From NCBI GenBank assembly GCA_017554235.1, contig JAFZIV010000061.1, forward strand, positions 15,984 to 79,983: 64,000 bases of DNA, read 5' to 3'. This document shows, in pieces, positions 3,141 to 58,838 of this stretch (within the stretch, counting starts at the first letter, position 1; the number at the start of each line of letters is the position of its first letter). The DNA comes from Selenomonadaceae bacterium (GTDB lineage: Bacteria; Bacillota; Negativicutes; Selenomonadales; Selenomonadaceae). A program made the position numbers and the translations under genes. Below the pieces are notes generated by a model. That model saw nothing but the letters and a program-made list of their open reading frames with translations. It did not search any database and had not been told where the DNA came from.

Positions 3141-3521
3141 CTAAACTTCCTCAATATCTTCTGGATGATTTTTGACATATTCGTGATAACTTTTAACCTC
3201 ATCCCAAAAATTTTTACCTTCTGTAGCCTTAAGTTGAAAAGCCAACATTGCCACTGCTGAAATACGCGCGACTTCGTGCGGTTTGAAAGTGTCAACCAAT
3301 TTTTCAACTGTACGCGCCATTTCGGTGAGTACATCGCGTTCATAAGTTCCTACGCGATTCAGGAAAAGAAGGTCAAACATTTGCTGTTCCAAAGGCGACC
3401 AATTCAAAGCAATTCCGGCATTAGAGCGCGGACTTTCATGGTACTCAATATTTTCGTCAACTGCCCCAATATCAGGAATATACATTTCTTCTTCGTCATC
3501 AATAATAGGTCTCTTTTTCAT
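3141..3521 (-). CDS. hypothetical protein (126 aa)
   Basis: Clean ORF between rfbD and the lpt operon. No recognisable domain. Confidence 0.45.
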   Translation of the reverse strand: MKKRPIIDDEEEMYIPDIGAVDENIEYHESPRSNAGIALNWSPLEQQMFDLLFLNRVGTYERDVLTEMARTVEKLVDTFKPHEVARISAVAMLAFQLKATEGKNFWDEVKSYHEYVKNHPEDIEEV

Positions 3522-3639
3522 AGAAAAGAACCGCCTCCGTAAATAAAAAAATTTCTACGCAATGAGTATATCACTAATTGCGCAGGACTGCAAATTTTTT
3601 TTATATTAGTTTTTTTAAAAACATATTCAAATCCTAAAT

Positions 3640-4749: not shown

Positions 4750-4779
4750 TTCTAGGGAATAGGGATTAGGGAAGAGGAT
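4750..4779 (-). repeat. Family C heptamer repeat, copy C1 (single CCCT-rich arm)
   Basis: The whole lptB to lptF/G spacer on the transcribed strand reads atcctcttccctaatccctattccctagaa, followed directly by ATG. These are TTCCCTA-type 7-nt units and there is no GGAGG. Confidence 0.7.
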
Positions 4780-5499: not shown

Positions 5500-5558
5500 T
5501 TTAGGGAATAGGGATTAGGGAATAGGGAATTACTTAGCCCTAAAACCTAAGCCCTAAT
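5500..5558 (-). repeat. Family C heptamer-hairpin repeat, copy C2
   Basis: The transcribed strand reads TAGggct TAGgttt TAGggct aag taa ttccctattccctaatccctattccctaaa, then ATG. The 5' arm starts with the TAG stop of the lptA-like gene. The 3' arm ends at the lptB start codon. Confidence 0.75.
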
Positions 5559-19959: not shown

Positions 19960-20208
19960 TGAAAAAGGCGGTGTTTGTAGTCAGTAACCCCCGCCTAACG
20001 GCGGAGGCTTGTTAAAAGCCTTGATTGACTAGCCTTAGTCTCTGACTACGTTACTTGCGAATGTATAGTTACCTACGAGCGTAAATCCTAACTTGTAGCT
20101 CTAAGGGCAATGGTTAAACAGTTCTGAGAGGTAAGAACAGTGCTGTTGCCATGTAAACCGCAAGATAACTTTGGCGAAGGATTATAACTCCGAGAGGAGG
20201 TATGCTTT
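19960..20208 (+). ncRNA. candidate IscB omega-RNA (guide plus scaffold)
   Basis: 253-nt non-coding gap directly 5' of iscB on the same strand. Nested helices readable by eye are: gtagtcag 19977-19984 with ctgactac 20042-20049; ccgcc 19991-19995 with ggcgg 20000-20004; aggctt 20005-20010 with aagcct 20016-20021; ggcaa 20106-20110 with ttgcc 20146-20150; gttct 20121-20125 with agaac 20134-20138. Size and position fit the known IscB omega-RNA arrangement. The exact ends and the guide are not determinable here. Confidence 0.6.
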
Positions 20209-21486
20209 TTGTTAGCATACGTTATCAATAAGCACGGAAAACCTTTAATGCCGTGCAAACCACAAAAAGCTAAAAAACTTTTGAAACAAGGTAGGGTAAA
20301 AGTTATTCGCCGCGAGCCGTTTACAATTCAGTTTTTGTATGGAGCAAGCGGTTATCAGCAGCTCGTAACATTAGGAGTAGACGCAGGTGCAAAATATATC
20401 GGTTTATCTGCGTCAACTGAAAAGAAAGAATTGTATTCTGCCGAAGTTGTGTTACGTACCGACATTACCGAATTAATTTCTACACGTAGAGAATTGAGGA
20501 GGGCAAGGCGCAATCACAAAACACGTTATCGTAAATCAAGATTCTTAAATCGAGTTAAGGCAAAGAAAAAAGGTTGGCTTGCACCGTCGATTTTAAACAG
20601 AATCAACGCACATTTAAAAGTTGTCGATAATGTTTGCCGAATTTTGCCGGTAACAAAAATTATTGTGGAGACAGCGAGCTTTGATATTCAGAAAATCAAA
20701 AATCCTGAAATCAGCGGCGTTGAATATCAGCAGGGCGAACAATTAAATTTCTGGAATGTGAGGGAATATGTTCTATTTAGAGATAAACACGAATGTCAAC
20801 AATGTCACGGGAAAAGCAAAGACAATGTTTTAAATGTTCACCATTTAGAAAGTCGAAAAACTGGAGGTGACGCTCCAAATAATTTAATCACGCTGTGCGA
20901 GACTTGCCACAAAAAATATCACGAAGGAAAAGTCAAACTGAAACGCGGACAGAGTTTTAAGGCAGAAGCATTTATGGGAACAATGCGTTGGATTTTCTTA
21001 AATAAATTGAAAGAAATTTATTTAATCGAAGTCCGAAATACATTCGGCTACATAACGAAGAATACAAGAATTAGATTGGGCTTTCCGAAGGAACATTACA
21101 TTGACGCTTATTGTATCGCAGGAAATGTTTGTGCCAAGAGATTAAATTATTACTGGTACTTGAAACAAGTGAGAAAACACAATCGGCAGATACACAAGCT
21201 TACGATTAATAAGGGCGGTAATCGCAAAAGAAATCAAACGCCGTTTGAAATTTTTGGCTACAGACTTTTTGATAAAGTAAAATGTAAAGGCGAGGTAGGA
21301 TTTATTTTTGGGCGCAGAGCAAGCGGCAGTTTTGATATTCGCAGGCTTGACGGCACAAAAATTTCTGCTGGAATCAGTTACAAAAAGTTAGAATTAATTG
21401 TAAAAAGGAAAAGTTATTTGAAAGAGAGGAGGGGCGCGGTTTCCTCCACACAACTAAATCAGGGGGTATCCAACGCGCATATGTGA
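20209..21486 (+). CDS. iscB: IscB RNA-guided nuclease (PLMP domain, split RuvC, bridge helix, HNH, C-terminal TID)
   Basis: 425 aa. The N-terminus NKHGKPLMPC is the PLMP motif. RuvC-I is LGVDAGAKYIG (Asp58). The Arg-rich bridge helix is RRELRRARRNHKTRYRKSRF. RuvC-II is IIVETASFD. The HNH region is CQQCHGKS..NVHHLESRKTGGDAPNNLITLCETCHKKYH. RuvC-III is HYIDAYC. The C-terminal part is FGYRLFDKV...GFIFGRRASGSFDIRRLDG. TTG start behind GAGGAGG. Confidence 0.85.
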   Translation: MLAYVINKHGKPLMPCKPQKAKKLLKQGRVKVIRREPFTIQFLYGASGYQQLVTLGVDAGAKYIGLSASTEKKELYSAEVVLRTDITELISTRRELRRARRNHKTRYRKSRFLNRVKAKKKGWLAPSILNRINAHLKVVDNVCRILPVTKIIVETASFDIQKIKNPEISGVEYQQGEQLNFWNVREYVLFRDKHECQQCHGKSKDNVLNVHHLESRKTGGDAPNNLITLCETCHKKYHEGKVKLKRGQSFKAEAFMGTMRWIFLNKLKEIYLIEVRNTFGYITKNTRIRLGFPKEHYIDAYCIAGNVCAKRLNYYWYLKQVRKHNRQIHKLTINKGGNRKRNQTPFEIFGYRLFDKVKCKGEVGFIFGRRASGSFDIRRLDGTKISAGISYKKLELIVKRKSYLKERRGAVSSTQLNQGVSNAHM

Positions 21487-23303: not shown

Positions 23304-23337
23304 AACTCCGTTGAGAAAAATTCAGCGGAGTTTTTTT
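23304..23337 (+). terminator. intrinsic terminator at the end of the Tad operon
   Basis: aactccg (15-nt loop) cggagtt followed by tttttaat, 37 nt after the stop. Confidence 0.6.
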
Positions 23338-23489
23338 AATATGATTCTATTCTGAAAGTAGAATTTTTCTGAAATTTTTTGAAGGAATTTTTGAAGGCGT
23401 GTAGAAATGCTTAATTAAAAGTAATTCAGCATAATCAGCGCGTCTAAAATTATTTGGCGCACTTGGATTTTAATCAGGGGGGATTATTT

Positions 23490-24620
23490 ATGAGGAAGAC
23501 AGAATGCTTGGGAATGATTCTTGCAGGCGGACAGGGCAGTCGTCTTAAAGCTCTGACAAAGACGGTAGCAAAGCCGGCAGTACCTTTCGGCGGAAAGTAT
23601 CGCATTATCGATTTTCCGATTTCAAACTGCGTGAACTCGGGCATTACGAAAGTTGGCGTTCTCACTCAGTACAAACCGTTTGAACTCCATAATTATCTTG
23701 GCGCGGGTTCCGCGTGGGATCTCGACCGTATTGGCGGCGGTATTTTTATTTTGCCTCCTTACGCTCGTGAAAAAGGTGCGGATTGGTACAGCGGAACTGC
23801 GGACGCCATTTATCAAAACTTGAATTTTATTGACCTGAACGATCCCGATTATGTTTTGATTCTTTCGGGCGACCATATTTACACGATGGATTATTCTTGG
23901 ATGCTTGAATCGCACAAGGCGAATAATGCTGACGTTACGATTGGCGTATTTGAAGTTCCGTTGGAAGAAGCTCCGCGTTTCGGCATTATGGTTACCGACA
24001 AAGAGACCGGCAGAATTACCGAATTCCAAGAAAAACCGAAAGAACCTAAATCAACGTTGGCGTCAATGGGTATTTACATTTTCTCGAAGCCCTTCCTTAA
24101 GAAATATCTTGAAGAAGATGGCGCAAATGAAAATTCTACTCACGACTTCGGTAACGACCTTATTCCGAAAATGCTTAATGACGGTGCGCGTCTTTTCTCC
24201 TATGCGTTCGACGGCTATTGGAAAGATGTAGGAACTATTGAATCTTTGTGGCAGGCAAATATGGACTTGCTCCAAGATCAGCCTCCCTTTGAACTGAATG
24301 GCGATTGGAAAATTTATTCCTCTAATCCTTCAATGCCTCCGCATTATATCGGACCCGATGGCGTTGTTAAACAAGCTATGATTGCTGAAGGTGCTCAAAT
24401 TCTCGGTCAAGTCGAACATTCCGTCATCTTCGGCGGCGTTAAAGTCGGTAAAGGCGCGAAAGTTACTAATTCCGTCGTCTTCCCCTTCACTAAAATTGAA
24501 GACGGTGCCGTTGTCGACCATGCTATCCTCGCTCAAGACGTTACCATTAAAGCTAATGCTAAAGTCGAAGGTAAGGAAGGCGAAATTTCCGTCATCCCTG
24601 AAGGCGAAATAGTTGGATAG
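23490..24620 (+). CDS. glgC: glucose-1-phosphate adenylyltransferase
   Basis: [23 protein letters not shown] and WYSGTADAI motifs. I chose the ATG at 23490 (G-rich RBS 8 nt upstream) rather than the track start at 23454. Confidence 0.95.
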
Positions 24621-24835
24621 TTAGGAGATCATTAGATCGCTAGTATTAAACACTAATAATCTAAAGGTCTAATTACTAACAACTAAAATTAAGATAGTTA
24701 GTTAGGAGATCATTAGATCGCTAGCAATTTACTAATGATCTAACGATCTAATTACTAGCAACTAGATAGTTAGTTGGGAGATCATTAAATCGCTAGTTAC
24801 TAATGATCTAACGATCTAATTACTAACAACTAAAA
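24616..24835 (+). repeat. Family B hairpin repeats, three tandem copies (B1-B3)
   Basis: There are three units of about 72 nt, each of the form (ga)tagttaggagatcattagatcgctag - loop - actaatgatctaacgatctaattactaacaacta. The first starts on the glgC TAG stop. The last ends 5 nt before the glgD GGAGG. About 30 TAG/TAA triplets occur in 220 nt. Confidence 0.85.
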
Positions 24836-24852
24836 ACGGAGGTGCTTATTTA

Positions 24853-25962
24853 ATGAAGACTGTAGTAGGTATCGTAAACCTGCAAGAAAGTAACGAATTA
24901 CTTAGAGAGTTAGCCGCAACTCGTGCCGTCGAGGCTCTTCCCTTCGCCGGTCGCTATCGCGTTGTCGACTTCTCCCTTTCCAATATGATTAATTCCGGCG
25001 TCAATTCCGTCGGTCTTATGCTTCCCGATTATTCCCGCGCTATCCTCGATCATATCCGTTCCGGTAAAGATTGGGATCTCGCTCGCCGTCGCGACGGTTT
25101 AACTTACCTCCCCGCCGCTCTCCCTTCCAATGACGCTCGTAAAGGCGATTTGAAAGATATTTATGCTAACCTCGACTTCGCCGAACTCTCCGATAAAAAA
25201 TATGTCCTCTTCGTCAACGGCTCTTACGTCTATAATATCGACTTCCAAAAGGTTCTCGACTTCCATAAAGACAGCGGCTCTGATATTACCATGATTTATA
25301 AGACTGTCGACGAGGATAAAGAAGGGCATACCGTCACTATCGAAACTTCTCCCAACGGCGTCGTTACCGATTTGGCTGAATCAAACGGCGTTAAAAAAGG
25401 TGCTAAAGCTGTTCTTAGCGCGTACCTGATGCCCGTTCCTACCTTCGCTTATATCGTCCGCTCTACCTATGAACGCGGCGGTCAAGATTTCCTCATCGAC
25501 GGCATTATTCGTCATTCCGGCGAACATAAAATCTCCGCTTACGAACATAAAGGTTACGTCGCTCGTATCAATTCCACTGCCGCTTACTATAAAGCTAACC
25601 GCGATTGCCTTAACCCTGAAGTTTGGGAAGAACTCTTTATGCAACCCGATCGTCCCATTTCTACAAAAGTTAAAGATGAAGTTCCTGTTCAGTACAAAGA
25701 AACCGCTGAAGTTAAAAATTCTCTCATCGCTAACGGTTGCGAAATTCGCGGACGTGTCGAAAATTCCATTCTCTTCAGAGGCGTTAAAGTCGGTAAGGGC
25801 GCAGTTGTCAAAGATGCTATCCTTATGCAACGTTGCGATATTCAAGATGGCGCACGCGTCGAAAATATTATCTGCGACAAAAACGTTATCATTACTAAAA
25901 ATCGCTGGCTGAAAGGCGTGGAGACTTTCCCCTACATCGTTACGAAAAATGCAAGAATTTAA
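24853..25962 (+). CDS. glgD: glucose-1-phosphate adenylyltransferase regulatory subunit GlgD
   Basis: GlgC paralog lacking the GGxGxRL motif (VGIVNLQES..). Same fold, with a left-handed beta-helix C-terminus. It lies directly after glgC, as in Firmicutes. Confidence 0.9.
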   Translation: MKTVVGIVNLQESNELLRELAATRAVEALPFAGRYRVVDFSLSNMINSGVNSVGLMLPDYSRAILDHIRSGKDWDLARRRDGLTYLPAALPSNDARKGDLKDIYANLDFAELSDKKYVLFVNGSYVYNIDFQKVLDFHKDSGSDITMIYKTVDEDKEGHTVTIETSPNGVVTDLAESNGVKKGAKAVLSAYLMPVPTFAYIVRSTYERGGQDFLIDGIIRHSGEHKISAYEHKGYVARINSTAAYYKANRDCLNPEVWEELFMQPDRPISTKVKDEVPVQYKETAEVKNSLIANGCEIRGRVENSILFRGVKVGKGAVVKDAILMQRCDIQDGARVENIICDKNVIITKNRWLKGVETFPYIVTKNARI

Positions 25963-26034
25963 TTACTAGGTACTAGTCTCCGCTGGTACGCAATAACATC
26001 TGAAATGCGGCGAATTTTTACGTCGGGGATTGAG

Positions 26035-26109
26035 TTTAGGGAACAGGGAATAAGGACAGGGAATGAACAAGAAAAACCAATCCCTAAATCCTTATTCCTA
26101 ACCCTAAAA
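26035..26109 (+). repeat. Family C heptamer-hairpin repeat, copy C3
   Basis: tttagggaacagggaataaggacagggaatg - loop - aatccctaaatccttattcctaaccctaaaa, built of NAGGGAA-type 7-nt units. It is flanked by a further 10-bp pairing: ggcgaatttt (26007-26016) with aaaattcgcc (26121-26130). Confidence 0.75.
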
Positions 26110-26117
26110 CACTCGGC

Positions 26118-26156: not shown

Positions 26157-26229
26157 TCAGTGATCAGTAATCAGTGATCCGTAGTCAGTTAAAAAATTCT
26201 GATCACTGACCACTGACTACTAACCACTT
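26157..26229 (+). repeat. Family A heptamer-hairpin repeat, copy A1
   Basis: TCAGTGA TCAGTAA TCAGTGA TCCGTAG TCAGTTA - aaaaatt - CTGATCA CTGACCA CTGACTA CTAACCA CTT. It ends 5 nt before the glgP GGAGG. Confidence 0.85.
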
Positions 26230-26251
26230 AAAACGGAGGTGACTTTTGCCT

Positions 26252-28714
26252 ATGGCTATAAATGAAAAGAAAATTACCCATAGCAAAGAATACGAAAAGC
26301 TTAAGGAAAATCTGAAACAACGTTTCATCAGTTCCGCCCACATTATGTTTGGACGCGATCTGAAAGATTTGCCGATGAACGACATTTACAAAACTGTCGC
26401 GGCGGTTGCGAAACAGATTATTTCAGAAAACTGGATTCAGACCAACAAAGCCTATATGGACAGGCAGGTTAAGCAGGTTTATTACTTCTCAATCGAATTT
26501 TTGATGGGGCGTCTCCTGAAATCGAACTTGATTAATCTCGGTATTGATGAAGCTTTCCGTGAAGTCATGGAAGACCTTGAATTTAACCTTGACGAAGCCA
26601 TTGATGAGGAAATGGATATAGGTCTCGGCAACGGCGGTTTAGGGCGTCTTGCCGCGTGTTTTATCGACTCAATGGCGGCGCATCGTCTGCCCGGTCATGG
26701 TTGCTGTATTCGTTATCAGTACGGACTTTTCGAGCAAAAAATTATTCAAGGTAACCAAGTCGAAATTCCCGATAACTGGTTACGTGACGGTTTCGCGTGG
26801 GAATATCGTAAACCCGATAAGGCTATCAACGTCAAATTCAACGGCAACGCTTATATGAAGAAACAGCCTGACGGTTCATTAAAGCTTGTTCATGAAAATG
26901 CTATGGTCGTTATGGCGGTACCTTATGATGTGCCGATTGTAGGTTATCATAATAAGACCGTTAATACTCTTAGATTGTGGAACGCGGAAGTCAATCGTGA
27001 TTTCTCAGATTACGGAATGCTCACTCATGAACAAATGCGCCAAAAACAGGAATACCGTAACTTCGTTGAATCCATTACCCAATACCTTTACCCCGATGAT
27101 AGTTCCAATGAAGGCAAGCGTATGCGCCTGATTCAAGAATACTTCCTCGTCTCCGCCGGCGTCCAATCTATCGTCCGCCATTACGTTAAAGCCGGTATGA
27201 ATATCCGCGAATTTGATAAGAAAATCGCTATCCATATTAACGATACTCACCCCGCACTTTGCGTAGCCGAATTGATGAGAATTTTGGTTGACGATTACGA
27301 TCTTGAATGGAATGAAGCTTGGACTATTACCCGTGCTACCTGCGCTTATACCAACCATACCATTCTCCCTGAAGCACTCGAAACTTGGCCCGTCGATATG
27401 TTCAAAGCTTTACTCCCGCGTATCTATATGATTATCGACGAAATTAACCGTAGACACGTAGAATATATCCGCGCCCGTTATCCTGATAATGTCGATAAAG
27501 TTCGCGCTATGTCTATCATTGAATACGGCGTCGTTCATATGGCTCGCCTCGCTATCGTAGGTTCTCATTCTGTAAACGGCGTCGCGCGTATCCATTCCGA
27601 TATTCTTAAATCTACCACCCTTCACGACTTCTACGAATATTGGCCCCGTATGTTCAATAACAAAACTAACGGCATTACTCATCGCCGCTGGCTCATGGGA
27701 GCAAATCCCGAACTCGCCGACCTTATCGACCGTACTATCGGCTCTCGTATTTGGCACCGTCACCCTGAACAACTCGATTTGTTAAATGAAGCCGTTGATA
27801 ATCCTAAAGTCCTGCGTGAACTCGGCGAAATTAAACATATCCGTAAAGTCGCACTTGCCGAATATATCAAAAAGCATAACAATATCGACGTAGACCCTGA
27901 TACCATTTTTGATATTCAAGTTAAGCGCATTCACTCTTATAAACGGCAACTTATGAATATCCTCCACATCATTTGGCAGTATAACAAACTTAAGACGGAT
28001 CCCAGTTATAACCCGCCTGCTACTACTTATTTCTTCGGCGGTAAAGCTGCGCCCGGTTATTATATCGCTAAGGAAACTATCCGCTTGATTCTTGCCGTTG
28101 CTAAATTGGTTAATAATGACGCCAGCATAAAAGGAAAATTGAAAGTTGTCTTTATCGAAAACTTTGGCGTTTCCATTGGCGAAATTGTTTATCCTGCGGC
28201 TGATGTCTCTGAACAAATTTCAACGGCGTCGAAAGAAGCGTCCGGCACAGGAAATATGAAATTTATGATGAACGGTGCAATAACGCTTGGCACTCTTGAC
28301 GGTGCGAACGTTGAGATTCGTGAAGCTGTCGGCGACGATAACATTGTTATTTTCGGTCTTAAAGCCGGTGAAGTTCTGCGCTATTATGAAACGGGTACTT
28401 ATTCCGCGTGGCAAGAATTCAATGAAAATCCCAATGCGCGTTTAGTGCTTGACAAGTTGACTGACGGAACTTTCGGCAATTTCCAATCTTTGCGTGATTA
28501 TCTGTTGCACGGCAATGACGAATTTTTCATTTTGAAAGACTTCAATGCTTACATTGATGCGCACAACGAAATTTATGCACGATACGAAGATAAAATGAGT
28601 TGGTTGCGTTCAGCCGCTATTAACATTGCCAATTCTGCGCGGTTCTCGTCTGACAGGACGATTGATGAATACGCGGACGAAATTTGGCACATTGTACCTT
28701 GTAAGATTCAGTAA
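26252..28714 (+). CDS. glgP: glycogen/alpha-glucan phosphorylase
   Basis: About 820 aa. The GT35 hallmark EASGTGNMKFMMNGA (PLP lysine) is present, with conserved N-terminal glycogen-binding regions. The ATG at 26252 lies 10 nt after GGAGGTG. Confidence 0.95.
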   Translation: MAINEKKITHSKEYEKLKENLKQRFISSAHIMFGRDLKDLPMNDIYKTVAAVAKQIISENWIQTNKAYMDRQVKQVYYFSIEFLMGRLLKSNLINLGIDEAFREVMEDLEFNLDEAIDEEMDIGLGNGGLGRLAACFIDSMAAHRLPGHGCCIRYQYGLFEQKIIQGNQVEIPDNWLRDGFAWEYRKPDKAINVKFNGNAYMKKQPDGSLKLVHENAMVVMAVPYDVPIVGYHNKTVNTLRLWNAEVNRDFSDYGMLTHEQMRQKQEYRNFVESITQYLYPDDSSNEGKRMRLIQEYFLVSAGVQSIVRHYVKAGMNIREFDKKIAIHINDTHPALCVAELMRILVDDYDLEWNEAWTITRATCAYTNHTILPEALETWPVDMFKALLPRIYMIIDEINRRHVEYIRARYPDNVDKVRAMSIIEYGVVHMARLAIVGSHSVNGVARIHSDILKSTTLHDFYEYWPRMFNNKTNGITHRRWLMGANPELADLIDRTIGSRIWHRHPEQLDLLNEAVDNPKVLRELGEIKHIRKVALAEYIKKHNNIDVDPDTIFDIQVKRIHSYKRQLMNILHIIWQYNKLKTDPSYNPPATTYFFGGKAAPGYYIAKETIRLILAVAKLVNNDASIKGKLKVVFIENFGVSIGEIVYPAADVSEQISTASKEASGTGNMKFMMNGAITLGTLDGANVEIREAVGDDNIVIFGLKAGEVLRYYETGTYSAWQEFNENPNARLVLDKLTDGTFGNFQSLRDYLLHGNDEFFILKDFNAYIDAHNEIYARYEDKMSWLRSAAINIANSARFSSDRTIDEYADEIWHIVPCKIQ

Positions 28715-28782
28715 TCAGTGAAAAGTAATCAGTGATCAGTGAAGAGTGAAAAAAATTTCTGACCACTGACCACTGACCACTT
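28708..28782 (+). repeat. Family A heptamer-hairpin repeat, copy A2
   Basis: TCAGTAA TCAGTGA AAAGTAA TCAGTGA TCAGTGA AGAGTGA - aaaaaattt - cTGACCAC TGACCAC TGACCAC TT. The first TAA is the glgP stop codon. It ends 4 nt before the glgB RBS. Confidence 0.85.
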
Positions 28783-28799
28783 AAAAAGGAAGTGATTTT

Positions 28800-30758
28800 G
28801 TGAAAACAACCGAACTTAACGAGTATGATCTTTACTTGTTCCACAACGGCACAAATTATTACGCTTATCAAATGCTCGGCGCACACTTCACGGAACAGGA
28901 CGGCAAAAAAGGCGTTCGTTTCGCAGTTTGGGCGAAAAATGCAAAGTCCGTCAGCGTAGTTGGCGAATTTAATAATTGGGATACTCGCGTACACAGAATG
29001 ATCCGCTTGCAAGACGGTGAAACGTGGAGTATTTTTATTGAAGGTCTCAAAGAGGGTATGACTTACAAATATGCGATTGAACCGCAATGGGGCGGACCGC
29101 ATATTTTGAAAGCTGATCCTTACGGTTTCTATGCTGAAAAGAAGCCTGCAACCGCGTCACGCCTTTACGATATGGAAGGATACGAGTGGCAAGACGGCGA
29201 ATATATGGAAGAAAAAGCAAAAGAATCTTCCTATAGTCGCCCAATGTTGATTTATGAGGTTCATGCAGGTTCTTGGCAACGTAAAGCACGCGGTGATAGC
29301 GATAAAGATGATGTTTATCTTTCCTACCGTGAATTGGCGGATAGACTTATTGCGTATGTCAAGAAGATGAACTACACGCATATAGAATTTATGCCGCTGA
29401 CGGAGCATCCCTTTGACGGTTCATGGGGTTATCAGACGACAGGTTACTACGCAGTAACGAGCCGCTACGGTGCGCCTAATGATTTCCGCTATTTCATTGA
29501 GACTGCGCACAAAAACGGTATCGGCGTCATAATGGACTGGGTACCGGGACATTTCTGCAAAAATAATGAAGGACTTCGCGAATTTGACGGAACTAACCTT
29601 TACGAATCAGACAATCCGCAACTTGCCGATAACAAAGGTTGGGGAACAATTAATTTTGACTACGGACGAACAGAAGTACAAAGTTTCTTAATCTCAAATG
29701 CGCTGTTCTGGTTCAATGAATATCATATAGACGGGTTGAGAATAGACGGGGTAGCAAATATGCTGTACCTGAACTTCGGACGCGAAGAAGGCGAGTGGAC
29801 GCCGAATAAATATGGCGATACGGGCAACCTTGAGGCTATCGACTTCATTAAAAAGCTTAACGAAGCAATCTTCAAATATCACCCGCAAGCGTTGATGATG
29901 GCGGAAGAATCCACAGATTGGCCTTTAATTTCCAAGCCGGTATATATGGGCGGAATGGGATTCAATTACAAGTGGAATATGGGCTGGATGAACGATATGC
30001 TGAAATATGTGAGCCTTGACCCGATATACCGCAAGTGGAATCACGATAAAGTGACGTTTAGCTTTATGTATGCGTTCAGTGAAAACTTTATCCTGCCGCT
30101 TTCACATGATGAAGTAGTACACGGAAAATGCTCGTTGATAGAGAAAATGCCGGGCGATTATTGGCAGAAATTTGCAGGGTTGAGAGGATTCTTCGGATAC
30201 TGGATGGCGCATCCCGGCAAGAAATTATTGTTTATGGGCAGTGAATACGGACAGTTCATTGAATGGAACGAGAATGACAGCTTAGATTGGCATTTAGTTG
30301 AACAGTACGAAAAACATACGCAAATGCAAAAATATTCAGCCGCGTTGAATAAATTCTACTGTGACAATAAGGCGTTCTGGCAGGTAGACTTTGATTGGAA
30401 CGGGTTCCAGTGGATAGACTGCAACGACAATGAAAACAGCGTGGTATCGTTTATACGTAAGGCGAAGGACGGCGAAGATTATATCATAGCGGTGTGCAAC
30501 TTTACGCCGGAAGTACGCGTAGGTTACAGAATCGGTGTACCCGACAAGGGCGCGTATGTTGAAGTGTTCAACAGTGACCTTGAAGAATTTGGCGGAAGTG
30601 GCGTAAAGAATGAAGGTGAATTGTTGACGCAGGACGTAGCGTGGCATAATCGCGGACAGTCGATAGAAGTTAGAGTGCCGCCTTTGGCGACGATTTACCT
30701 TAAGTACGTGAAAGGTTCTTACGTTGAACCGCCGAAGGAAGAAGAAGAAAAAGAGTAA
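28800..30758 (+). CDS. glgB: 1,4-alpha-glucan branching enzyme
   Basis: GH13_9 motifs: DWVPGHF, GLRIDGVANM, MMAEEST, LPLSHDEVVHGK. There is an N-terminal CBM48-like region. GTG start. Confidence 0.95.
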   Translation: MKTTELNEYDLYLFHNGTNYYAYQMLGAHFTEQDGKKGVRFAVWAKNAKSVSVVGEFNNWDTRVHRMIRLQDGETWSIFIEGLKEGMTYKYAIEPQWGGPHILKADPYGFYAEKKPATASRLYDMEGYEWQDGEYMEEKAKESSYSRPMLIYEVHAGSWQRKARGDSDKDDVYLSYRELADRLIAYVKKMNYTHIEFMPLTEHPFDGSWGYQTTGYYAVTSRYGAPNDFRYFIETAHKNGIGVIMDWVPGHFCKNNEGLREFDGTNLYESDNPQLADNKGWGTINFDYGRTEVQSFLISNALFWFNEYHIDGLRIDGVANMLYLNFGREEGEWTPNKYGDTGNLEAIDFIKKLNEAIFKYHPQALMMAEESTDWPLISKPVYMGGMGFNYKWNMGWMNDMLKYVSLDPIYRKWNHDKVTFSFMYAFSENFILPLSHDEVVHGKCSLIEKMPGDYWQKFAGLRGFFGYWMAHPGKKLLFMGSEYGQFIEWNENDSLDWHLVEQYEKHTQMQKYSAALNKFYCDNKAFWQVDFDWNGFQWIDCNDNENSVVSFIRKAKDGEDYIIAVCNFTPEVRVGYRIGVPDKGAYVEVFNSDLEEFGGSGVKNEGELLTQDVAWHNRGQSIEVRVPPLATIYLKYVKGSYVEPPKEEEEKE

Positions 30759-30825
30759 TCAGTGAAAAGTAATCAGTGATCAGTGAAAAAACTTCTGACC
30801 ACTGACCACTGATCACTGACCACTT
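30754..30825 (+). repeat. Family A heptamer-hairpin repeat, copy A3
   Basis: aGTAATC AGTGAAA AGTAATC AGTGATC AGTGAAA - aaactt - cTGACCAC TGACCAC TGATCAC TGACCAC TT. The first TAA is the glgB stop. It ends 7 nt before the glgA GGAGG. Confidence 0.85.
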
Positions 30826-30845
30826 AAAAGACGGAGGAAAATGAT

Positions 30846-32294
30846 ATGAAAGTATTATACGTAGCGGCAGAAGCAGCCCCGTTCGTAAAAACGGGCGGAT
30901 TGGCAGACGTAGCAGGCAGCTTGCCGCACGCATTGAAAGCGCAGGGCGTAGATGTCCGCGTAATAATGCCGAAGTTCAGCAAAATCGGCGAAGATTTCCG
31001 TAACAATATGGAACACATTTACGACGGGACGATACCGGTATCGTGGCGCAATAAGTTTGTCGGAATTGACAGATATGATTATAAAGGCGTACCGTTCTAC
31101 TTTGTGGACAACGAAGAATATTACTACCGCGAAGGATTATACGGCTATGATGATGACGCGGAAAGATACAGCTTTTTTGCGAGAGCGATTCTGAATTGTT
31201 TGCCGGCGATAGACTTTTTCCCTGATGTAATAAATGCGAACGATTGGCACGCGGGATTGGTACCTGTGCTTTTGAAGTTGGAGCATCAAGGAGACGAGCG
31301 TTATCAAAATATCAAGACGCTGTACACGATACATAATCTTAAATATCAAGGCGTGTTCCCGAAAGATGTAATGGGCGACGTGCTTGGTTTGGATTGGAAA
31401 TATTTCAACAACGGCGACTTGGAATTTTATGACGCTGTAAACTTTATGAAGGGCGGCATAATTTACGCAGATTATGTGTCGACGGTGTCGAAGACGTATG
31501 CGCAAGAAATTCAGTATGAATATTTTGGAGAGCATTTAGACGGATTGCTTAGGAGTCGAAAAGATGATTTGTACGGCATAGTGAACGGAATAGATTATGA
31601 TGCGTACAATCCTGCGACGGATAAAAATCTTTTCGTAAATTATGATAACAGCGATGCGTTTACGGCATTTGAGAGAAAAGGCGACAACAAAGTAAAGTTA
31701 CAAGAGATGTTGAACCTGCCGAAAGACAGAAAGAAACCGATGGTGTCAATGGTAACGCGGTTAGTAGCGGCGAAGGGCTTAGACTTAGTCGTAAGAATGA
31801 TGGACGAACTTTTACAGCATGAAGATTTTCAATTTGTGTTGTTAGGAACTGGCGACAAAGTTTACGAAGATTGGTTTAAGGGATTAGCGTGGAGATTCCC
31901 GCAGAAGGTAAGTGCGAACATACTGTTTAACAATCAGCTTGCGCAGAGGATATACGCGGCGAGTGACATTTTCTTAATGCCGAGCAACTATGAACCTTGC
32001 GGAATAGGACAGTTAGTAGCTATGCGTTACGGTGCTGCGCCGGTAGTGCGTGAAACGGGCGGCTTAAAAGATACCGTCATTCAATACGACAAATATGAAG
32101 GCAAAGGCAACGGTTTTGTCTTCAGCAACTACAATGCTCATGAAATGATGTACGCCTTGAAACGCGCGCTCTCAACTTACGGCAACTTTGAAGTTTGGTT
32201 GAAGATTTCCTCCAACGCTATGAACAGCGATTACAGCTGGACAGAATCTGCGCGGGAATACATTGAACTTTATCAGAAACTGATGAATAAATAA
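30846..32294 (+). CDS. glgA: glycogen synthase (ADP-glucose type)
   Basis: N-terminal AAEAAPFVKTGGLADV (KTGGL motif). GT5 architecture, 482 aa. Confidence 0.95.
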   Translation: MKVLYVAAEAAPFVKTGGLADVAGSLPHALKAQGVDVRVIMPKFSKIGEDFRNNMEHIYDGTIPVSWRNKFVGIDRYDYKGVPFYFVDNEEYYYREGLYGYDDDAERYSFFARAILNCLPAIDFFPDVINANDWHAGLVPVLLKLEHQGDERYQNIKTLYTIHNLKYQGVFPKDVMGDVLGLDWKYFNNGDLEFYDAVNFMKGGIIYADYVSTVSKTYAQEIQYEYFGEHLDGLLRSRKDDLYGIVNGIDYDAYNPATDKNLFVNYDNSDAFTAFERKGDNKVKLQEMLNLPKDRKKPMVSMVTRLVAAKGLDLVVRMMDELLQHEDFQFVLLGTGDKVYEDWFKGLAWRFPQKVSANILFNNQLAQRIYAASDIFLMPSNYEPCGIGQLVAMRYGAAPVVRETGGLKDTVIQYDKYEGKGNGFVFSNYNAHEMMYALKRALSTYGNFEVWLKISSNAMNSDYSWTESAREYIELYQKLMNK

Positions 32295-32328
32295 ATTTGG
32301 ATAAATAAAATTCGTTAATAAAATTTTT

Positions 32329-32360
32329 TCCGATAAGTTATCTTGTCGGAATTTTTTTTG
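32329..32360 (+). terminator. intrinsic terminator after glgA
   Basis: ttccga (12-nt loop) tcggaa followed by T8. Confidence 0.6.
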
Positions 32361-32438
32361 TTTGAAGGTAATTTCGCGTCGACTAAGAATTATAACGTGT
32401 ACAAATTTTAGTCGAATTTTTTATTGGAGGTAAATTTT

Positions 32439-33803
32439 ATGGCAGTTGAAAAAAATTTGTTTAAATACGACTTCGCCGTTGTGTCGATTGTGAAAGACGC
32501 GGCAGAAAATATCAAAGAGTGGATTGAATATCATATGCTGGCAGGCGTTGACCATTTTTATATTTACGACAATGACAGCTACGACAATATTAAGGACATT
32601 CTTCAACCTTATGTTAATTCTAAACTCGTCACATATATTTTTTATCCCGGCAAAAATCAGCGTATCGCCGCTTATAATAACGCCGTTGAAAATTTCAAAT
32701 TTGAATGCCGCTATATGACTTTCCTTGACGTTTCGGAATTTCTTCTTCCGAAAAAAAATCAAACTGTCGTTGAAGTCACGGACGAAATTTTTAGCGGTAA
32801 AGATAATGTCGGAGGCATTGAACTTAATAGTTACAATTACAGCGCGGGCAGTCAGGAAATTCCCGAAGACGGAATACTCGGCAGATTTACTCGGCGCGAA
32901 CGTAACCCTTTTGAGATTGCCAACACGATTGTAAATCCTCGCAAGGTCGACTATCTTTTTAATGCTCGTTATGCGACTTACTTTGACGGAGTTTTCCGCG
33001 TAAATGATTACAGCGGCAAAGTCAATGAAGATTCTGACGAAACTGTTTCTGATAAAATCATTGTTAATTCCTACAAAAAAATTATTGAAAAAGAAAAGTC
33101 TAAACCCACTGATAGTTCACTTGATGCAACCAAATCTATGCTGGAATCTTTCTATCGTATTAAACTTTTTGACGACAGCATTTTAAAGTATCGCAAAGCT
33201 CGAAATGATCATTTCCTCAGAAATTATGATGAAATGTCTAAAAAGCTTTCCGGCAATATCGACGAATCAAAACTTTTAAACGTATTAGCGAAAACTTTAC
33301 TGCCAAATTTTAAAGATTATAACGCCATAGAATTTTTTAAGTCGAAAGAAAATCAACTTAGATATTTCCGCGCCATAAGTGAATTTTATGTGAGTGCGCC
33401 TAATGAATTTTTCCAAAATAAAATGGAAACTTTCTTGACTTGCTTTAACGTTTCATTACACCTTAAAGAAACGATACTTGACGAAATAGCGGGAAGATTT
33501 TTTGTAGACGCAACCTTAAATGCAATTTGCCAAACTTTGTGTACAGAAATTTCAACGTCGGACGCAAGACTTTTCATCAGAGAATTGCCGAAAATCTTAC
33601 CGTTGCCGTATCAGACAGTAGAAATTTTATTGTCAATTTGCGCGGGAATGTTGGATAAAATGAAAGATACTCTCAAAAATTCCAGCGAAGAGAAAAAGAA
33701 TTACGACATTGACGAAAACGAAATGGCAACGTGGCGCAAATTCACCGAGATTGAATATCTGCAAAAGCTTCTCAAATTCCTCAATGTTCCGAAAAATAAT
33801 TAA
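32439..33803 (+). CDS. GT-A fold glycosyltransferase (Glyco_tranf_2_4/GT92-like) with unknown C-terminal helical domain, paralog 1
   Basis: N-terminal pattern AVVSIVKDAAENIKEWIEYHMLAGVDHFYIYDNDS, typical of GT92/GT2_4 proteins. The DxD position reads DVSEF, which is degenerate. ATG at 32439 after GGAGG. Confidence 0.65.
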   Translation: MAVEKNLFKYDFAVVSIVKDAAENIKEWIEYHMLAGVDHFYIYDNDSYDNIKDILQPYVNSKLVTYIFYPGKNQRIAAYNNAVENFKFECRYMTFLDVSEFLLPKKNQTVVEVTDEIFSGKDNVGGIELNSYNYSAGSQEIPEDGILGRFTRRERNPFEIANTIVNPRKVDYLFNARYATYFDGVFRVNDYSGKVNEDSDETVSDKIIVNSYKKIIEKEKSKPTDSSLDATKSMLESFYRIKLFDDSILKYRKARNDHFLRNYDEMSKKLSGNIDESKLLNVLAKTLLPNFKDYNAIEFFKSKENQLRYFRAISEFYVSAPNEFFQNKMETFLTCFNVSLHLKETILDEIAGRFFVDATLNAICQTLCTEISTSDARLFIRELPKILPLPYQTVEILLSICAGMLDKMKDTLKNSSEEKKNYDIDENEMATWRKFTEIEYLQKLLKFLNVPKNN

Positions 33804-33814
33804 GAGGTTTAATT

Positions 33815-35197
33815 ATGAGCGTTGACAAAGATTTATTTATGTACGGACTCGCCGCTGTTACGATTGTACGTGACGAGGCTCCTTATATTAAAGAATGGCT
33901 GGATTATCACTTACTTGCGGGCGTGGATCATTTTCTGATTTACAACAATGAAAGCAGTGATAATTTGCAGGAAGTTTTAAAACCTTACGTCGAAAAACAT
34001 TTAGTGACTCTGATTCCGTATCCGAAAACTTATCGACAACTTATGGCGTACAATGACGCGGTAAAATACTTCAAATATTATTGTCGGCAGATGGTGTTCA
34101 TTGACGTTGATGAATTTATTTTCCCGCAAAATGGAAAAAATATTCTTGACGTGACGGACGAAATTTTAGGGGACAATGTTGCAGGATTAGCCGTCAATCT
34201 TCATACTTTCGGCTCAAATGGTTTTGAAAAAGCCGATTACAGCATAGGAGTTTTGGAAAGATTTACGCGCCGTGCAGAGGACAATTGGACGCCGATTGAA
34301 AATAATATTCCGCTGGGCAATGCCGCCGTCAAGACTATTGCTGACCCGCGCAGGTTGAAAATGTTCGTCGACAATACGCACGTTCCCGAATACTTTGAAG
34401 ATTATCATGCCGTCAATGAAAACTGTGAAGTTGTAGAAAAATTTTTTAATGTCCCAGTGACTTCCAATAAAATTGTCATAAATTATTACGGAACTAAATC
34501 TCGTGAAGAATACGCGGAAAAAGTTCATAAACGTGAGACAGCGCGATTTGTTAAGCGTAATGAACCTGTAGGATTTGACGCCAATGATCGCAATGAAATT
34601 TTTGATGACGGAATTTTAGCGTATCGTGAAAAGTTACGTGCTGAACAAATTTCTGATGGTAGTGATGCGTTAAAAATTTTAGCTGGACGTAAACGCATTA
34701 ACGGCAGACGTATGTTTGCGGCACTGGTAAGAAATTTGACGCCGGATTTTACGAAGAGCAACCTTAAAGATTTTTTTGCGAATCCCAAAAATCGCACAAC
34801 CTATTTTAACGACTTAATTAAGTTTTACAAGAAAGCACCGCCGACTTTTTTTGCCGGAAATTTGGAAACTTATTTAACTTGCTTATCAGTGAGTTCATAT
34901 CTTAGAAAAGGTTATCTTGACGATACGACAGGCGCATTTTTCGAGGAAGCGTCACTCAACGCGATTTGCAAAACATTTGCGTCGAATTTGTCACTTTTGG
35001 ACTTACGATTGTTAGTCGCCGAATTGCCGAGAATCTTAGCAATACCTTCTGCTACTGTAAAAGCACTTGTAACTGTCTGCCTTGAAATTTTCCCGCAATT
35101 CCTTGAAGATTTTCGAGTAAAGGGAGATATAAAAAATTTTGAAGAATTATCCTACTTGATAAAAATGTTACGCGTGTTCTCTCTTTACAGAAAATAA
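33815..35197 (+). CDS. GT-A fold glycosyltransferase (Glyco_tranf_2_4/GT92-like) with unknown C-terminal helical domain, paralog 2
   Basis: Same architecture as paralog 1. DxD is DVDEF. Shared C-terminal motifs are YLTCLSVSSYL, ASLNAICKT and ELPRILAIP. Confidence 0.65.
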   Translation: MSVDKDLFMYGLAAVTIVRDEAPYIKEWLDYHLLAGVDHFLIYNNESSDNLQEVLKPYVEKHLVTLIPYPKTYRQLMAYNDAVKYFKYYCRQMVFIDVDEFIFPQNGKNILDVTDEILGDNVAGLAVNLHTFGSNGFEKADYSIGVLERFTRRAEDNWTPIENNIPLGNAAVKTIADPRRLKMFVDNTHVPEYFEDYHAVNENCEVVEKFFNVPVTSNKIVINYYGTKSREEYAEKVHKRETARFVKRNEPVGFDANDRNEIFDDGILAYREKLRAEQISDGSDALKILAGRKRINGRRMFAALVRNLTPDFTKSNLKDFFANPKNRTTYFNDLIKFYKKAPPTFFAGNLETYLTCLSVSSYLRKGYLDDTTGAFFEEASLNAICKTFASNLSLLDLRLLVAELPRILAIPSATVKALVTVCLEIFPQFLEDFRVKGDIKNFEELSYLIKMLRVFSLYRK

Positions 35198-35273
35198 ATT
35201 GCGCGGGAAGATGTAGTACCAAAAAATCTTATCCTTAGTCACTAATACCTTTTCCCTAAGTTGAGGTGGTACC

Positions 35274-36650
35274 ATGAGCGTCGACAAAGATTTATTTCTG
35301 TACGATTTAGCGATTGTGTCAATCATGAAAAATGCCGCGCCTTATGTTGAAGAGTGGTTGGATTATCATTTGCTGGCAGGTGTAGATCATTTTTTCATTT
35401 ACGACAATGAAAGTGAAGATAACTTCAAAGAAATTCTTCAACCGTACATTGACGCTGGACTTGTCACATATATTTTTTATCCCGGTCAACGTGTAATGAT
35501 GGCTGCTTTTAATGAAGCTATTGACAAGTATAAATACCTCTGTCGTTACATTGCTTTTGTTGATGACGACGAATTTATTTTGCCTAAAAATAATCGCAGT
35601 ATTTCTAAAGTTGTTGATGAAATTTTGTTTAATGATATGAAAGCGGGCGGCTTGGAAATTTCTTGGGTCTTTTACGGTTCAAGCGGGCAGGAAAAAGCTG
35701 ATTATAGTCATGGAGTGTTGGAAAGATTTAAGCGTCGAGCCACTAAAGAATCGAGATCCGCCAAATCAATTCTTAATCCACGAAGAGTAAAATATATGTG
35801 GACTACGCATTTTGCTGTTTATCAACAAGGTTATGGCGGATTAAATCAAAATAAATTGGAACAATTTTCGGATATTCCTTTTCGACTTACTGACAAAATT
35901 GTTATAAATCACTATCATACAAAATCTTGGGAAGAATATTGTTTAAAGCGTAAACGCGGCGATGGTGTTGTAAAGACTGGAGATAAATACATTGACAAAA
36001 CATTTAAAGCCCATGATTTAAACGATATTTTTGACGAAGAAATTTTGCGATACCGAAAAGCTAGAAGTGATGAAATAATTTTGGAAGGAAAAAGTGTTCT
36101 GGAAACTTTTGCAGAGATTAATCGAATAGATTACAACAAAATTTTTAAGACACTGATTTCAAATTTGTTTGTCCCCTTTGAAAGATATAATCCTAAAGAT
36201 TTTTTTGACGAAAAGAAAAATCGCTATTTATACTCAAGTGTGGTATCACAATTTATTCAAGACATACCTCCCATGATTTTTAAAGATAAGCTTGAAAAAT
36301 ATTTAACGTGTTTGTCTATAAGCACGTATCTTAAGAAAAATTTTTTGGGCGATGAAATTGGTGAACTCTTTGAAGAATATTCTTTGTTATTGATTGAAAA
36401 AGTTTTGCTTAACGAAACTTCAATAGCAGATTTTCAACTTTTGATGCAGGAAATGCCGAGAATTTTAGCTTTACCTTATCCCGTCGTTTACAAAATTCGT
36501 CGACGTTGCATGGAAATGATTGCCTGTTACAAAGAAAGTCTTCAAGATTCCATTGATACTACAGATAAATTGCCGCTCTGGGAAGAAATTCTTCGTTGGG
36601 ATTATCATTTAAAAATGCTGAAAGTTTTTGATAATTACAATCACAAATAA
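35274..36650 (+). CDS. GT-A fold glycosyltransferase (Glyco_tranf_2_4/GT92-like) with unknown C-terminal helical domain, paralog 3
   Basis: Same architecture as paralog 1. DxD is DDDEF. Shared C-terminal motifs are YLTCLSISTYL and EMPRILALPY. Confidence 0.65.
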   Translation: MSVDKDLFLYDLAIVSIMKNAAPYVEEWLDYHLLAGVDHFFIYDNESEDNFKEILQPYIDAGLVTYIFYPGQRVMMAAFNEAIDKYKYLCRYIAFVDDDEFILPKNNRSISKVVDEILFNDMKAGGLEISWVFYGSSGQEKADYSHGVLERFKRRATKESRSAKSILNPRRVKYMWTTHFAVYQQGYGGLNQNKLEQFSDIPFRLTDKIVINHYHTKSWEEYCLKRKRGDGVVKTGDKYIDKTFKAHDLNDIFDEEILRYRKARSDEIILEGKSVLETFAEINRIDYNKIFKTLISNLFVPFERYNPKDFFDEKKNRYLYSSVVSQFIQDIPPMIFKDKLEKYLTCLSISTYLKKNFLGDEIGELFEEYSLLLIEKVLLNETSIADFQLLMQEMPRILALPYPVVYKIRRRCMEMIACYKESLQDSIDTTDKLPLWEEILRWDYHLKMLKVFDNYNHK

Positions 36651-46852: not shown

Positions 46853-47262
46853 AAAATTGCCTCCTAAATTTTAATCGCAGATATTATCACATTGTTTTAA
46901 AAAATTATCAAGCAAAAAATTTTCAGAATCTACTCGAATATTTATAGACAAAACGCAATATTTGTAGTAGGATTTTAAGTGGAATAAAATAATTTTTTTG
47001 GAAAGGGAGTTTTAAACAGTAACCCCAAACATTGACAAAAATATACATAGTCTCTAAAATGTCCCTATCAGCGAGAACCAAGCTGAATAAAAAAGTTTTA
47101 ATACCGGTGGCTCGCCGGGAATTCACGACTGTGGAGTGTTACAGCAAACGTTAGTAGGTAAGCCGAGAACGGACACGATGAAGCAGTAAGACAGAATCGC
47201 GAGGTCTGTCCGATTCATCTTGACTTAGACTTTTGTCTATGTTTTAAGGAGCAGTGGTTGTA

Positions 47263-58716: not shown

Positions 58717-58747
58717 TAAGAGTCATTGCTCCTTTCACTACGCATTA

Positions 58748-58838
58748 CGCATTATTATCTTTCAGTTTTCAGCTTTTAGAAAATTTCCATAAGCTATAGG
58801 CTGAAAACTTTCATTACGCATTACGTACTAGCAGACCG
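58748..58838 (-). repeat. Family D heptamer repeat/hairpin, copy D1
   Basis: On the transcribed strand, GTAATGC GTAATGA precedes a perfect 10-bp hairpin: agttttcagc (plus-strand 58775-58784) with gctgaaaact (58811-58820). ATAATGC GTAATGC GTAGTGA follows, and then the rpoA AAGGAG. Confidence 0.75.

Follow-up and report, generated by a model that had tools for sequence, protein, structure and literature searches.

Family A is a set of palindromic heptamer repeats lying between genes of two operons in a 64,000-nucleotide (nt) stretch of DNA from a Selenomonadaceae bacterium (assembly GCA_017554235.1, contig JAFZIV010000061.1, positions 15,984 to 79,983; hereafter the window). The copies sit in the glycogen (glg) operon and in ribosomal-protein genes; they share one anatomy and one orientation relative to transcription, fold into hairpins, are present or absent at the same junctions in close relatives, and give way there to other repeat families. 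We consider that these elements are probably lineage-specific, insertion-polymorphic palindromic repeats of the STRR (short tandemly repeated repetitive) kind, tolerated as insertions rather than maintained as a conserved regulator. Judged by sequence comparison, Family A itself is new, and its kind is already described in cyanobacteria as STRR and functionally unresolved.

Family A occupies the space between stop codon and Shine-Dalgarno site

Family A comprises five copies in the window (A1 to A5) and two beyond it on the same contig. The sequence outside the window came from a 98-kb metagenome scaffold that contains the window and is identical to it in the overlap, and copy counts cover about 80 kb of one contig of the home genome, with two operons. 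The two outlying copies lie at rplN|rplX and rplF|rplR, in the adjoining ribosomal-protein genes, and a remnant with a 5' arm only is found on the scaffold at rpsS|rplV. No copy occurs in the remaining ~8 kb of scaffold retrieved or in the first 26 kb of the window. A first-pass annotation, made from the letters of the sequence, had reported A1 to A3; their positions and heptamer architecture were confirmed by reading the sequence and by Tandem Repeats Finder, which detects period-7 arrays at every arm of the Family A copies, while the two minus-strand window copies, A4 and A5, had been missed. The copies in the window are as follows.

A1: 26157-26229, plus strand, glgD|glgP spacer; 5' arm 26157-26190, loop 26191-26198, 3' arm 26199-26229
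A2: 28708-28782, plus strand, glgP|glgB; 5' arm 28708-28749 (6 units), loop 28750-28758, 3' arm 28759-28782
A3: 30752-30825, plus strand, glgB|glgA; 5' arm 30752-30786, loop 30787-30794, 3' arm 30795-30825
A4: 59884-59962, minus strand, rpsM|rpsK; 5' arm 59962-59921, loop 59920-59915, 3' arm 59914-59884
A5: 61488-61591, minus strand, secY|adk; 5' arm 61591-61527 (9 units, 21-nt super-period), loop 61526-61519, 3' arm 61518-61488

Each cassette is 73-104 nt long. The 5' arm is built on the 21-mer AAAGTAA-TCAGTGA-TCAGTGA and in A1 to A3 contains 5-6 heptamers of the type (T/A)(C/A)AGT(G/A)A, and the 3' arm consists of 3-4 CTGAYCA units with a terminal CCACTT. The loops of A1 to A3 are A/T-rich (AAAAAATT, AAAAAATTT and AAAAACTT), and the loop of the family has the approximate common form AAAAATTT. 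Aligning all seven copies reveals a single architecture with a conserved loop and 3' end. All seven are intergenic, forming a dispersed multicopy set, and, with one operon on each strand, share a single orientation with respect to transcription. A probe of two units (TCAGTGATCAGTGA, up to two mismatches) matches the window 27 times, against 0.21 matches expected from shuffled sequences, which agrees with the earlier judgement that the arrangement is too regular for random AT-rich spacer, as do the folds described below. A4 and A5 came to light through this probe.

The placement of the cassettes relative to genes is equally regular. The upstream stop codon sits in the first unit of A2, A3, A4 and A5, as the first-pass annotation had noted for A2 and A3 and as open reading frames (ORFs) and sequence show alike for A4 and A5, and the base of the helix takes in the last sense codon of the upstream gene. 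On the other side, the 3' arm ends 4-7 nt before the Shine-Dalgarno (SD) site of the next gene in all five window copies, a distance that had also been given correctly for the first three, and the SD remains unpaired. The signals at these junctions are listed here.

28712-28714, plus strand: glgP stop TAA, within the first A2 unit (TCAGTAA)
30756-30758, plus strand: glgB stop TAA, within the first A3 unit (AGAGTAA)
59956-59958, minus strand: rpsM stop TGA, within the first A4 unit (AGAGTGA); rpsM ORF 59956-60327
61586-61588, minus strand: secY stop TAA, within the first A5 unit (GAAGTAA); secY ORF 61586-62842
26235-26239, plus strand: SD GGAGG of glgP, 5 nt past A1
28788-28792, plus strand: SD-like GGAAG of glgB, 5 nt past A2
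30833-30837, plus strand: SD GGAGG of glgA, 7 nt past A3
59873-59877, minus strand: SD GGAGG of rpsK, 6 nt past A4
61477-61481, minus strand: SD GGAGG of adk, 6 nt past A5

Orthologous junctions are empty or hold other repeat families

Comparison with related loci, chosen by identical IF-1 or closely related GlgB proteins, provides the evidence for insertion. At secY|adk, where A5 resides, the junction is empty in four relatives (15 nt, AAATAAAATGGAGGAAACAAAATG, in L252, L254 and L257; 12 nt in L255) and filled by other repeat families elsewhere: the Family B octamer (CTAACGAT) in L002, L003 and L006, Family E (TTAAGAA) in L256 and Family F (CTAGCAA) in L258. Family B at this junction occurs in strains with an identical Adk protein. 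The flank from SD to ATG is identical or nearly so in all relatives but L258, and the adk SD flank TGGAGGAAACAAAATG is the same in relatives with and without an insert. The rplF|rplR slot is empty (18 nt) in three relatives.

The glg junctions are similarly variable. At glgP|glgB the slot is empty in L290, L291, L262-264 and L266/267, with a repeat-free spacer of 12 nt in the nearest relative (ATCCAATAAGGAAGTGATATTATG), 24-39 nt in L262-264 and 75 nt in L266/267; L292 carries an octamer hairpin (TAGTGGGA/CTACCCCA) at the same place. The glgB SD region, GGAAGTGAT, directly follows the stop codon in the empty relative L290. No relative examined has a heptamer hairpin at glgB|glgA or Family A at any glg junction, and Family A is also absent from secY|adk and rplF|rplR in most relatives. 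Since slots in relatives are either empty or differently filled, the Family A copies are recent insertions into ancestrally very short stop-to-SD spacers, and different repeat families have colonised the same slots time and again. The first-pass annotation had expected a functional intercistronic element from the precision of the placement. The comparison of orthologous junctions does not support that argument and shows no conservation of Family A: ancestral junctions were compact, the stop-to-SD spacers of relatives without the element measure 12-24 nt, and a surviving insertion must land between the stop and the SD.

The edges of the insertions can be read in part. Last codons that are AAA, CAA or GAA followed by TAA in the nearest relatives are AAG, CAG or GAG followed by TAA here, all synonymous changes, which implies that the first unit, (N)NAGTAA, overlays the last codon and supplies the stop. 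The right junction reads ACT-TAA-A, with TAA in most copies, and TAA is found at both junctions in A2, A3, A5 and A7, the last an off-window copy. The left flank of A1, AAGATTCAGT, is 10 nt of the native conserved glgP 3' end, whose C-terminus (…KIQ*) is kept in relatives. This match suggests that A2, along with some adjoining coding sequence, was the source of A1, a pattern that argues for template switching or ectopic conversion rather than precise transposition.

In L290, the nearest relative, the counterpart of the A1 site (glgD|glgP, about 3470-3525) has neither arm and reads GGAAGTGAAAAAATTTTTTTAAGGAGG, with one AAGTGA unit beside an A6T7 palindrome, and resembles the last 5' unit plus loop of Family A. 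It may be what is left of a collapsed array, or else a seed.

A model of tolerated insertion

In the model that we favour, cassettes would have been copied, inside long operons, into the gap of a few nucleotides that separates a stop codon from the SD of the following gene. The first unit, (A)AGTAA, would overlay the last codon and stop, and the 3' end, ACT-TAA-A, would overlay the A-rich stretch before the SD; microhomology or template switching may have mediated the copying. Purifying selection would then confine Family A to the only tolerated site, stop to SD, and to one orientation. The operon mRNA would carry an imperfect, moderately stable hairpin extending from the stop to 4-7 nt before a free SD, and transcription would not be terminated. 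Being almost without harm in this position and orientation, dispensable copies could persist: the upstream stop would be kept, no open frame would run into the next gene, the SD would be untouched, and A·C oppositions would weaken the mRNA hairpin. At most, the elements might modulate segmental mRNA stability or translational coupling, roles that have been proposed, and never shown, for cyanobacterial STRR hairpins (PMC2670836).

Folding and strand asymmetry

All five window copies are predicted to form hairpins on both strands, and none of 200 shuffled sequences per copy folds as well. Minimum free energies are given below; z-scores range from -3.6 to -6.8 for the sense strand and from -5.9 to -9.5 for the antisense strand.

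A1: sense -22.5 kcal/mol (z -4.7), antisense -38.0 kcal/mol
A2: sense -21.7 kcal/mol, antisense -30.9 kcal/mol
A3: sense -28.3 kcal/mol, antisense -41.1 kcal/mol
A4: sense -32.6 kcal/mol, antisense -41.4 kcal/mol
A5: sense -33.3 kcal/mol, antisense -44.1 kcal/mol

The antisense RNA is thus the more stable one, by 9-16 kcal/mol in the five window copies and in 7/7 copies overall. The cause is a systematic mismatch: with antisense pairs mapped onto the sense strand, the seven copies contain 31 A(5')·C(3') sense oppositions and one C·A, and the 31 A·C mismatches become G·U pairs on the antisense strand. The first-pass annotation had described such a once-per-heptamer mismatch, with G·U on the opposite strand, and it is now documented at 31 positions.

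Sequence within the heptamers is also asymmetric with respect to stop triplets. Among the 36 complete 5'-arm units of the seven copies, positions 5-7 read TGA in 21, TAA in 14 and TAG in one, and Family A contains 77 stop triplets on the sense strand versus 43 on the antisense. Stops in all frames follow from the arithmetic of a 7-nt unit that contains TGA or TAA. The earlier statement that the repeats place a stop in every frame accordingly holds for Family A and fails as a property of the class. In the other families, stops are about equally dense on the two strands (177 sense versus 165 antisense) and some elements leave one frame open throughout, which rules out stops in every frame as a selected feature of the whole class; a class-wide rule of greater antisense stability is likewise ruled out, the strands of 19 hairpins of those families showing no systematic difference (12 versus 7, mean difference 0.65 kcal/mol). 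Because the other families display no trend, both the A·C/G·U asymmetry and the surplus of sense stops belong to Family A and were probably inherited from one founder copy.

Two further candidate roles were considered and rejected. Family A copies are not intrinsic terminators: TTAAAA rather than a U-tract follows the hairpin, and a terminator scan reports none of the copies. Sequestration or insulation of the ribosome-binding site (RBS) by the insert finds no support in predicted accessibility (-15 to +3), whose shifts between filled and empty junctions are inconsistent, being higher with the insert at rplR and glgB and unchanged or lower at adk, glgA and glgP. Searches against Rfam returned no family matching Family A at the gathering score, and at E<=1 a single match, a spurious miRNA, outside the Family A copies.

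Alternative explanations

Several observations weigh against tolerated insertion. Its support spans only ~80 kb of the home genome and two operons, and no transposase or target-site duplication has been established, the empty and filled junctions giving no clean duplication. A single orientation in 7/7 copies is improbable under random insertion (two-sided p about 0.016, the seven copies not being independent events). The rpsM|rpsK junction carries a repeat hairpin in 7/7 readable loci of the eight related loci (the remaining one, L257, has an N-gap there), with TAGGGCN/TTCCCTA, GCGTAAT, TTAAGAA or Family A as fillers (families C, D and E in the relatives); a junction that is always filled could reflect selection for a hairpin at that site. 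Finally, a stop triplet occupies positions 5-7 in 36/36 5'-arm units and TGG in 0/36, though TGG would restore pairing; selection may have favoured either the stops or a weaker helix.

The main rival draws on much the same observations. It holds that Family A is a selected intercistronic RNA device, such as a processing site, a decay barrier (an RNase III target or a block to 3' or 5' exonucleases) or a ribosome reset that would couple or uncouple the translation of adjacent cistrons, with the stop codons and the free SD as design parts. Strict sense orientation, a hairpin reaching from the stop codon to just short of an unpaired SD, the constant occupancy of rpsM|rpsK, the stops kept in every 5'-arm unit, the higher predicted RBS accessibility at rplR and glgB, and the parallel roles proposed for STRR hairpins are all consistent with it. 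On the other hand, close relatives lack the element at every orthologous glg junction and at the majority of their secY|adk and rplF|rplR junctions; sequences unrelated to it fill the same slots; folding is poorer on the sense strand; other families do not share the stop-codon property; and at adk, glgA and glgP the insert either leaves predicted accessibility as it was or reduces it. We regard such a device as unlikely, while granting it an appreciable chance.

A second alternative places the function in DNA, with the bottom-strand hairpin as the active form, either as a single-stranded substrate of a recombinase or transposase or as a palindrome grown by slippage and template switching at the replication fork. 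Its models are REP/RAYT, the ends of IS200/605 elements and integron attC sites, and orientation would follow replication, not transcription. The stronger antisense folding of every copy suits this explanation, as does the presence of G·U on the antisense strand at 31/31 asymmetric positions, the usual signature of a structurally constrained strand; so do the dispersed, insertion-polymorphic copies, a GC skew in the window that flips with gene orientation, and an IS200/605-superfamily element in the window (a HEARO RNA with a presumed IscB-like ORF). The flipping skew makes the directions of transcription and replication inseparable here. The asymmetry is confined to Family A, probably as the legacy of one founder copy, with no trend in the other families (12 versus 7); the genes called in ~80 kb include neither a Y1 transposase nor a RAYT, and a GTAG head is missing from the repeats. 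Moreover, were the operons co-directional with replication, the strand exposed as lagging-strand template would be the sense strand. We rate a DNA-level element as improbable.

A third possibility, which we rate as very improbable, is that the heptamers are bound, one to each protein domain, by a nucleic-acid-binding protein such as a cold-shock-domain protein or ribosomal protein S1. The same idea has been put forward for the TAACTGA repeats that precede start codons in Beggiatoaceae, and the Family A 3' arm, (YCACTGA)n, shares with these the ACTGA core, the orientation and the position before start codons (PMC4679880); the same heptamers also recur across phyla. However, the unrelated units TAGGGAA, CTAGCAA and TTAAGAA and the octamers CTAACGAT and TAGTGGGA fill the same slots, so that no single sequence-specific reader fits, and Family A retains a canonical SD and has its units paired within a hairpin. 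Chance structure in AT-rich spacer, which has nothing beyond the AT-richness of the spacers in its favour, is refuted by the probe counts, by folds that beat 200 shuffles in every copy and by the architecture shared by seven copies.

Relation to known repeat systems

Family A most closely recalls the STRR sequences of cyanobacteria, a kinship suspected in the first-pass annotation and supported by the literature. Hairpins of 7-bp repeats lie between the co-transcribed hupS and hupL genes of several cyanobacteria; their function is unknown, and transcript stability or translational coupling has been suggested (PMC2670836). Family A likewise consists of tandem 7-bp units, is dispersed and multicopy, and forms hairpins between co-transcribed genes. 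A Nostoc operon contains CCACTGACTACTGAC repeats (PMC2408588), and this repeat, csR1.3, with which the comparison was made rather than with the STRR1-3 consensus, is of the same type as the Family A 3'-arm unit. Unlike STRR sequences, which are hosted by heterocystous cyanobacteria, Family A is hosted by a rumen bacterium of the Negativicutes, has a 21-nt super-period and a systematic A·C (sense)/G·U (antisense) asymmetry, and lies exactly between stop and SD, in slots that several unrelated families share among close relatives. A paper on the Quinella genome makes no mention of such repeats.

REP/BIME, ERIC and Correia elements are dispersed imperfect palindromes in the transcribed extragenic DNA of operons, are insertion-polymorphic between strains, and have known or proposed orientation-dependent effects on mRNA decay and processing. 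For REP elements, too, segmental mRNA stability and translational coupling have been proposed and, to our knowledge, never shown. Family A differs from REP/BIME in lacking a conserved GTAG head in the seven-copy alignment, in having arms of tandem short-period units and in measuring 73-104 nt against a 20-40-nt palindrome, and no RAYT, Y1 transposase or IS partner was found in ~80 kb of the home genome. With miniature inverted-repeat transposable elements, the points of comparison are the inverted arms and the TAA at both junctions of A2, A3, A5 and A7.

Among long simple repeats, heptamers rank first in abundance in most prokaryotic genomes (PMC4679880). In marine Beggiatoaceae, cyanobacteria and Bacteroidetes, TAACTGA repeats closely precede start codons, among them those inside ribosomal-protein operons. 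They usually take the place of a recognisable RBS, are almost always direct (one indirect set among 170), and are scattered across phyla, with no mechanism of spread known (PMC4679880). The Family A 3' arm, (YCACTGA)3-4, likewise consists of forward-oriented NNACTGA units and, in every window copy, stops 4-7 nt short of the SD; unlike TAACTGA repeats, every Family A copy is an inverted pair and is followed by GGAGG or GGAAG. The paired MTYCTGA sites of Geobacter metallireducens consist of five tandem NNNCTGA heptamers, are multicopy, and are annotated only as putative global regulator sites (PMC2700814). A supplementary-figure legend there describes strand-switching sequences, which we read as opposite-strand pairs. 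The spacing between halves is variable, unlike that of Family A, and the text of the paper reports no link to stop codons and SD sites (PMC2700814).

Distribution beyond the lineage and its significance

Heptamers like those of Family A are found well outside the Negativicutes. Matches of a 20-nt 3'-arm probe in species-representative genomes exceed the ~4 expected by chance (our own estimate), and the matches listed include Acidobacteriota, Chloroflexota, Planctomycetota, Bacteroidota, Desulfobacterota and others. With a 5'-arm probe, the matches listed from metagenomes likewise come from many other phyla, and 22 viral contigs match the heptamers. The home genome is not among the genome and metagenome matches listed. 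The hairpin form found across phyla is (CAGTGGT)n…(ACCACTG)n. Wherever an inverted partner exists, the CAGT-type arm lies 5' of the ACTG-type arm, with ratios of 29:0, 17:0 and 9:0 (55/55 among the matches listed) in a set of (CAGTNNN)n paired with (NNNACTG)n from genomes, metagenomes and viral contigs. Within the Quinella lineage, the G-rich arm is 5' in 28/28 hairpins of the repeat families seen.

A possible cause of this polarity is a filter against GTG-rich open arrays that face the downstream gene; another is a filter against C-rich arms that would be the first to leave the polymerase. Arrays of (CTGACCA)n in other phyla showed no orientation bias relative to flanking genes (21 versus 26, with a crude ORF caller), a test that is weak because those hairpins are symmetric. 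In 204 kb of related loci, 161/172 junctions are co-directional, counted with a gene finder that missed small ribosomal-protein genes.

A bolder interpretation, which we consider rather unlikely, is that tandem-heptamer hairpins are a cross-phylum, self-propagating operon punctuation with fixed polarity and an unknown copy mechanism anchored on the stop codon; the first unit would be laid over the last codon and the stop, and TAA would turn up at both junctions. If true, this would amount to a new kind of mobile element or a general termination/re-initiation device, and would explain the 35-year-old puzzle of STRR. These and other heptamer repeats have been on record since 1990 with neither a function nor a means of spreading assigned to them. 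If Family A copies are neutral passengers, the result is an ordinary one. In either case the loci described here offer natural experiments, in which near-identical junctions are empty, filled by Family A or filled by unrelated families. Together with the built-in strand asymmetry of Family A (A·C in the mRNA, G·U on the opposite strand), pairs of empty and filled junctions make the effect on mRNA, the relevant strand and the copying mechanism testable. In practice, such elements also fragment assemblies and mislead the calling of gene ends in metagenome-assembled genomes (MAGs).

Genomic context and other repeat families

The glg genes, annotated with NCBIfam, and the terminators that bound them are as follows.

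23304-23332, plus strand: intrinsic terminator before glgC, a 12-pair stem followed by TTTTT; left boundary of the glg unit
23454-24620: glgC
24853-25962: glgD
26246-28714, plus strand: glgP (NCBIfam and ORF)
28800-30758, plus strand: glgB (NCBIfam and ORF)
30846-32294: glgA
32328-32351, plus strand: intrinsic terminator after glgA, a 10-pair stem followed by TTTTTTTT; right boundary of the glg unit

Lying between these terminators and not being terminator-like themselves, A1 to A3 are internal to one transcription unit. The minus strand of the window carries rplO, secY, adk, infA, rpsM, rpsK, rpsD and rpoA. The closest named GlgB homologues (80-93% identity) are from Selenomonadaceae MAGs and Quinella sp., and the contig, with a G+C content of about 40%, contains glgD and Lpt outer-membrane genes, which together indicate an uncultured, Quinella-like rumen Negativicute as host.

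Other repeat families are interspersed with Family A. Family B, with the octamer TTAGATCG/CGATCTAA, occurs at window positions 24621-24852 and 63285-63426 and at 3771-3858 of L001; three tandem Family B hairpins fill the glgC|glgD spacer, and single copies lie at rpmD|rplO and rpsQ|rplN. Family C hairpins (TAGGGAA/CAGGGAA … TTCCCTA) are located at 4750-4779, 5500-5553 and 26030-26110, one of them just upstream of A1 within the glgD|glgP spacer, and in relatives at rpsH|rplF, at rpsM|rpsK and after glgA. Family D (GCGTAAT heptamers) is found at 58717-58839, where it flanks an unrelated hairpin at rpsD|rpoA, and at 59434-59470, where it forms a short direct array at rpsK|rpsD; in relatives, both junctions hold 3-4 direct units of it.

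Two structured RNAs are matched in the window. At 19980-21486, a HEARO RNA (Rfam RF02033, 128 bits) precedes an ORF of 425 aa that is presumably IscB-like. A second HEARO-like copy, between rpmC and rpsQ (L001, 2690-3153), has a Family B hairpin embedded in one stem; this parallels STRRs in cyanobacterial RNase P RNA, Vioque (1997) having reportedly described STRRs within the gene for RNase P RNA. A RAGATH-18 RNA match (47128-47189; 70.6 bits, gathering score 44.9) lies in a 401-nt divergent intergenic region.

Among the ribosomal-protein genes, that for L30 (63427-63912, minus strand) encodes 161 aa, against 88-89 aa in relatives; the excess is a ~72-aa low-complexity insertion rich in A, K, N and V before the conserved C-terminal GPAIAEK motif. 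Relatives have a radical-SAM gene between infA and rpmJ, and the spacer upstream of it contains a poly-G tract of 9 versus 13 G that is possibly phase-variable (L252, 5220-5414; L258, 2975-3164). Downstream of the glg unit, at 32424-36650, three tandem paralogous ORFs of ~460 aa with precomputed Pfam hits to Glyco_transf_92, and no NCBIfam match, sit between glgA and a 1152-aa fused amylase/4-alpha-glucanotransferase gene, and their number varies among relatives.

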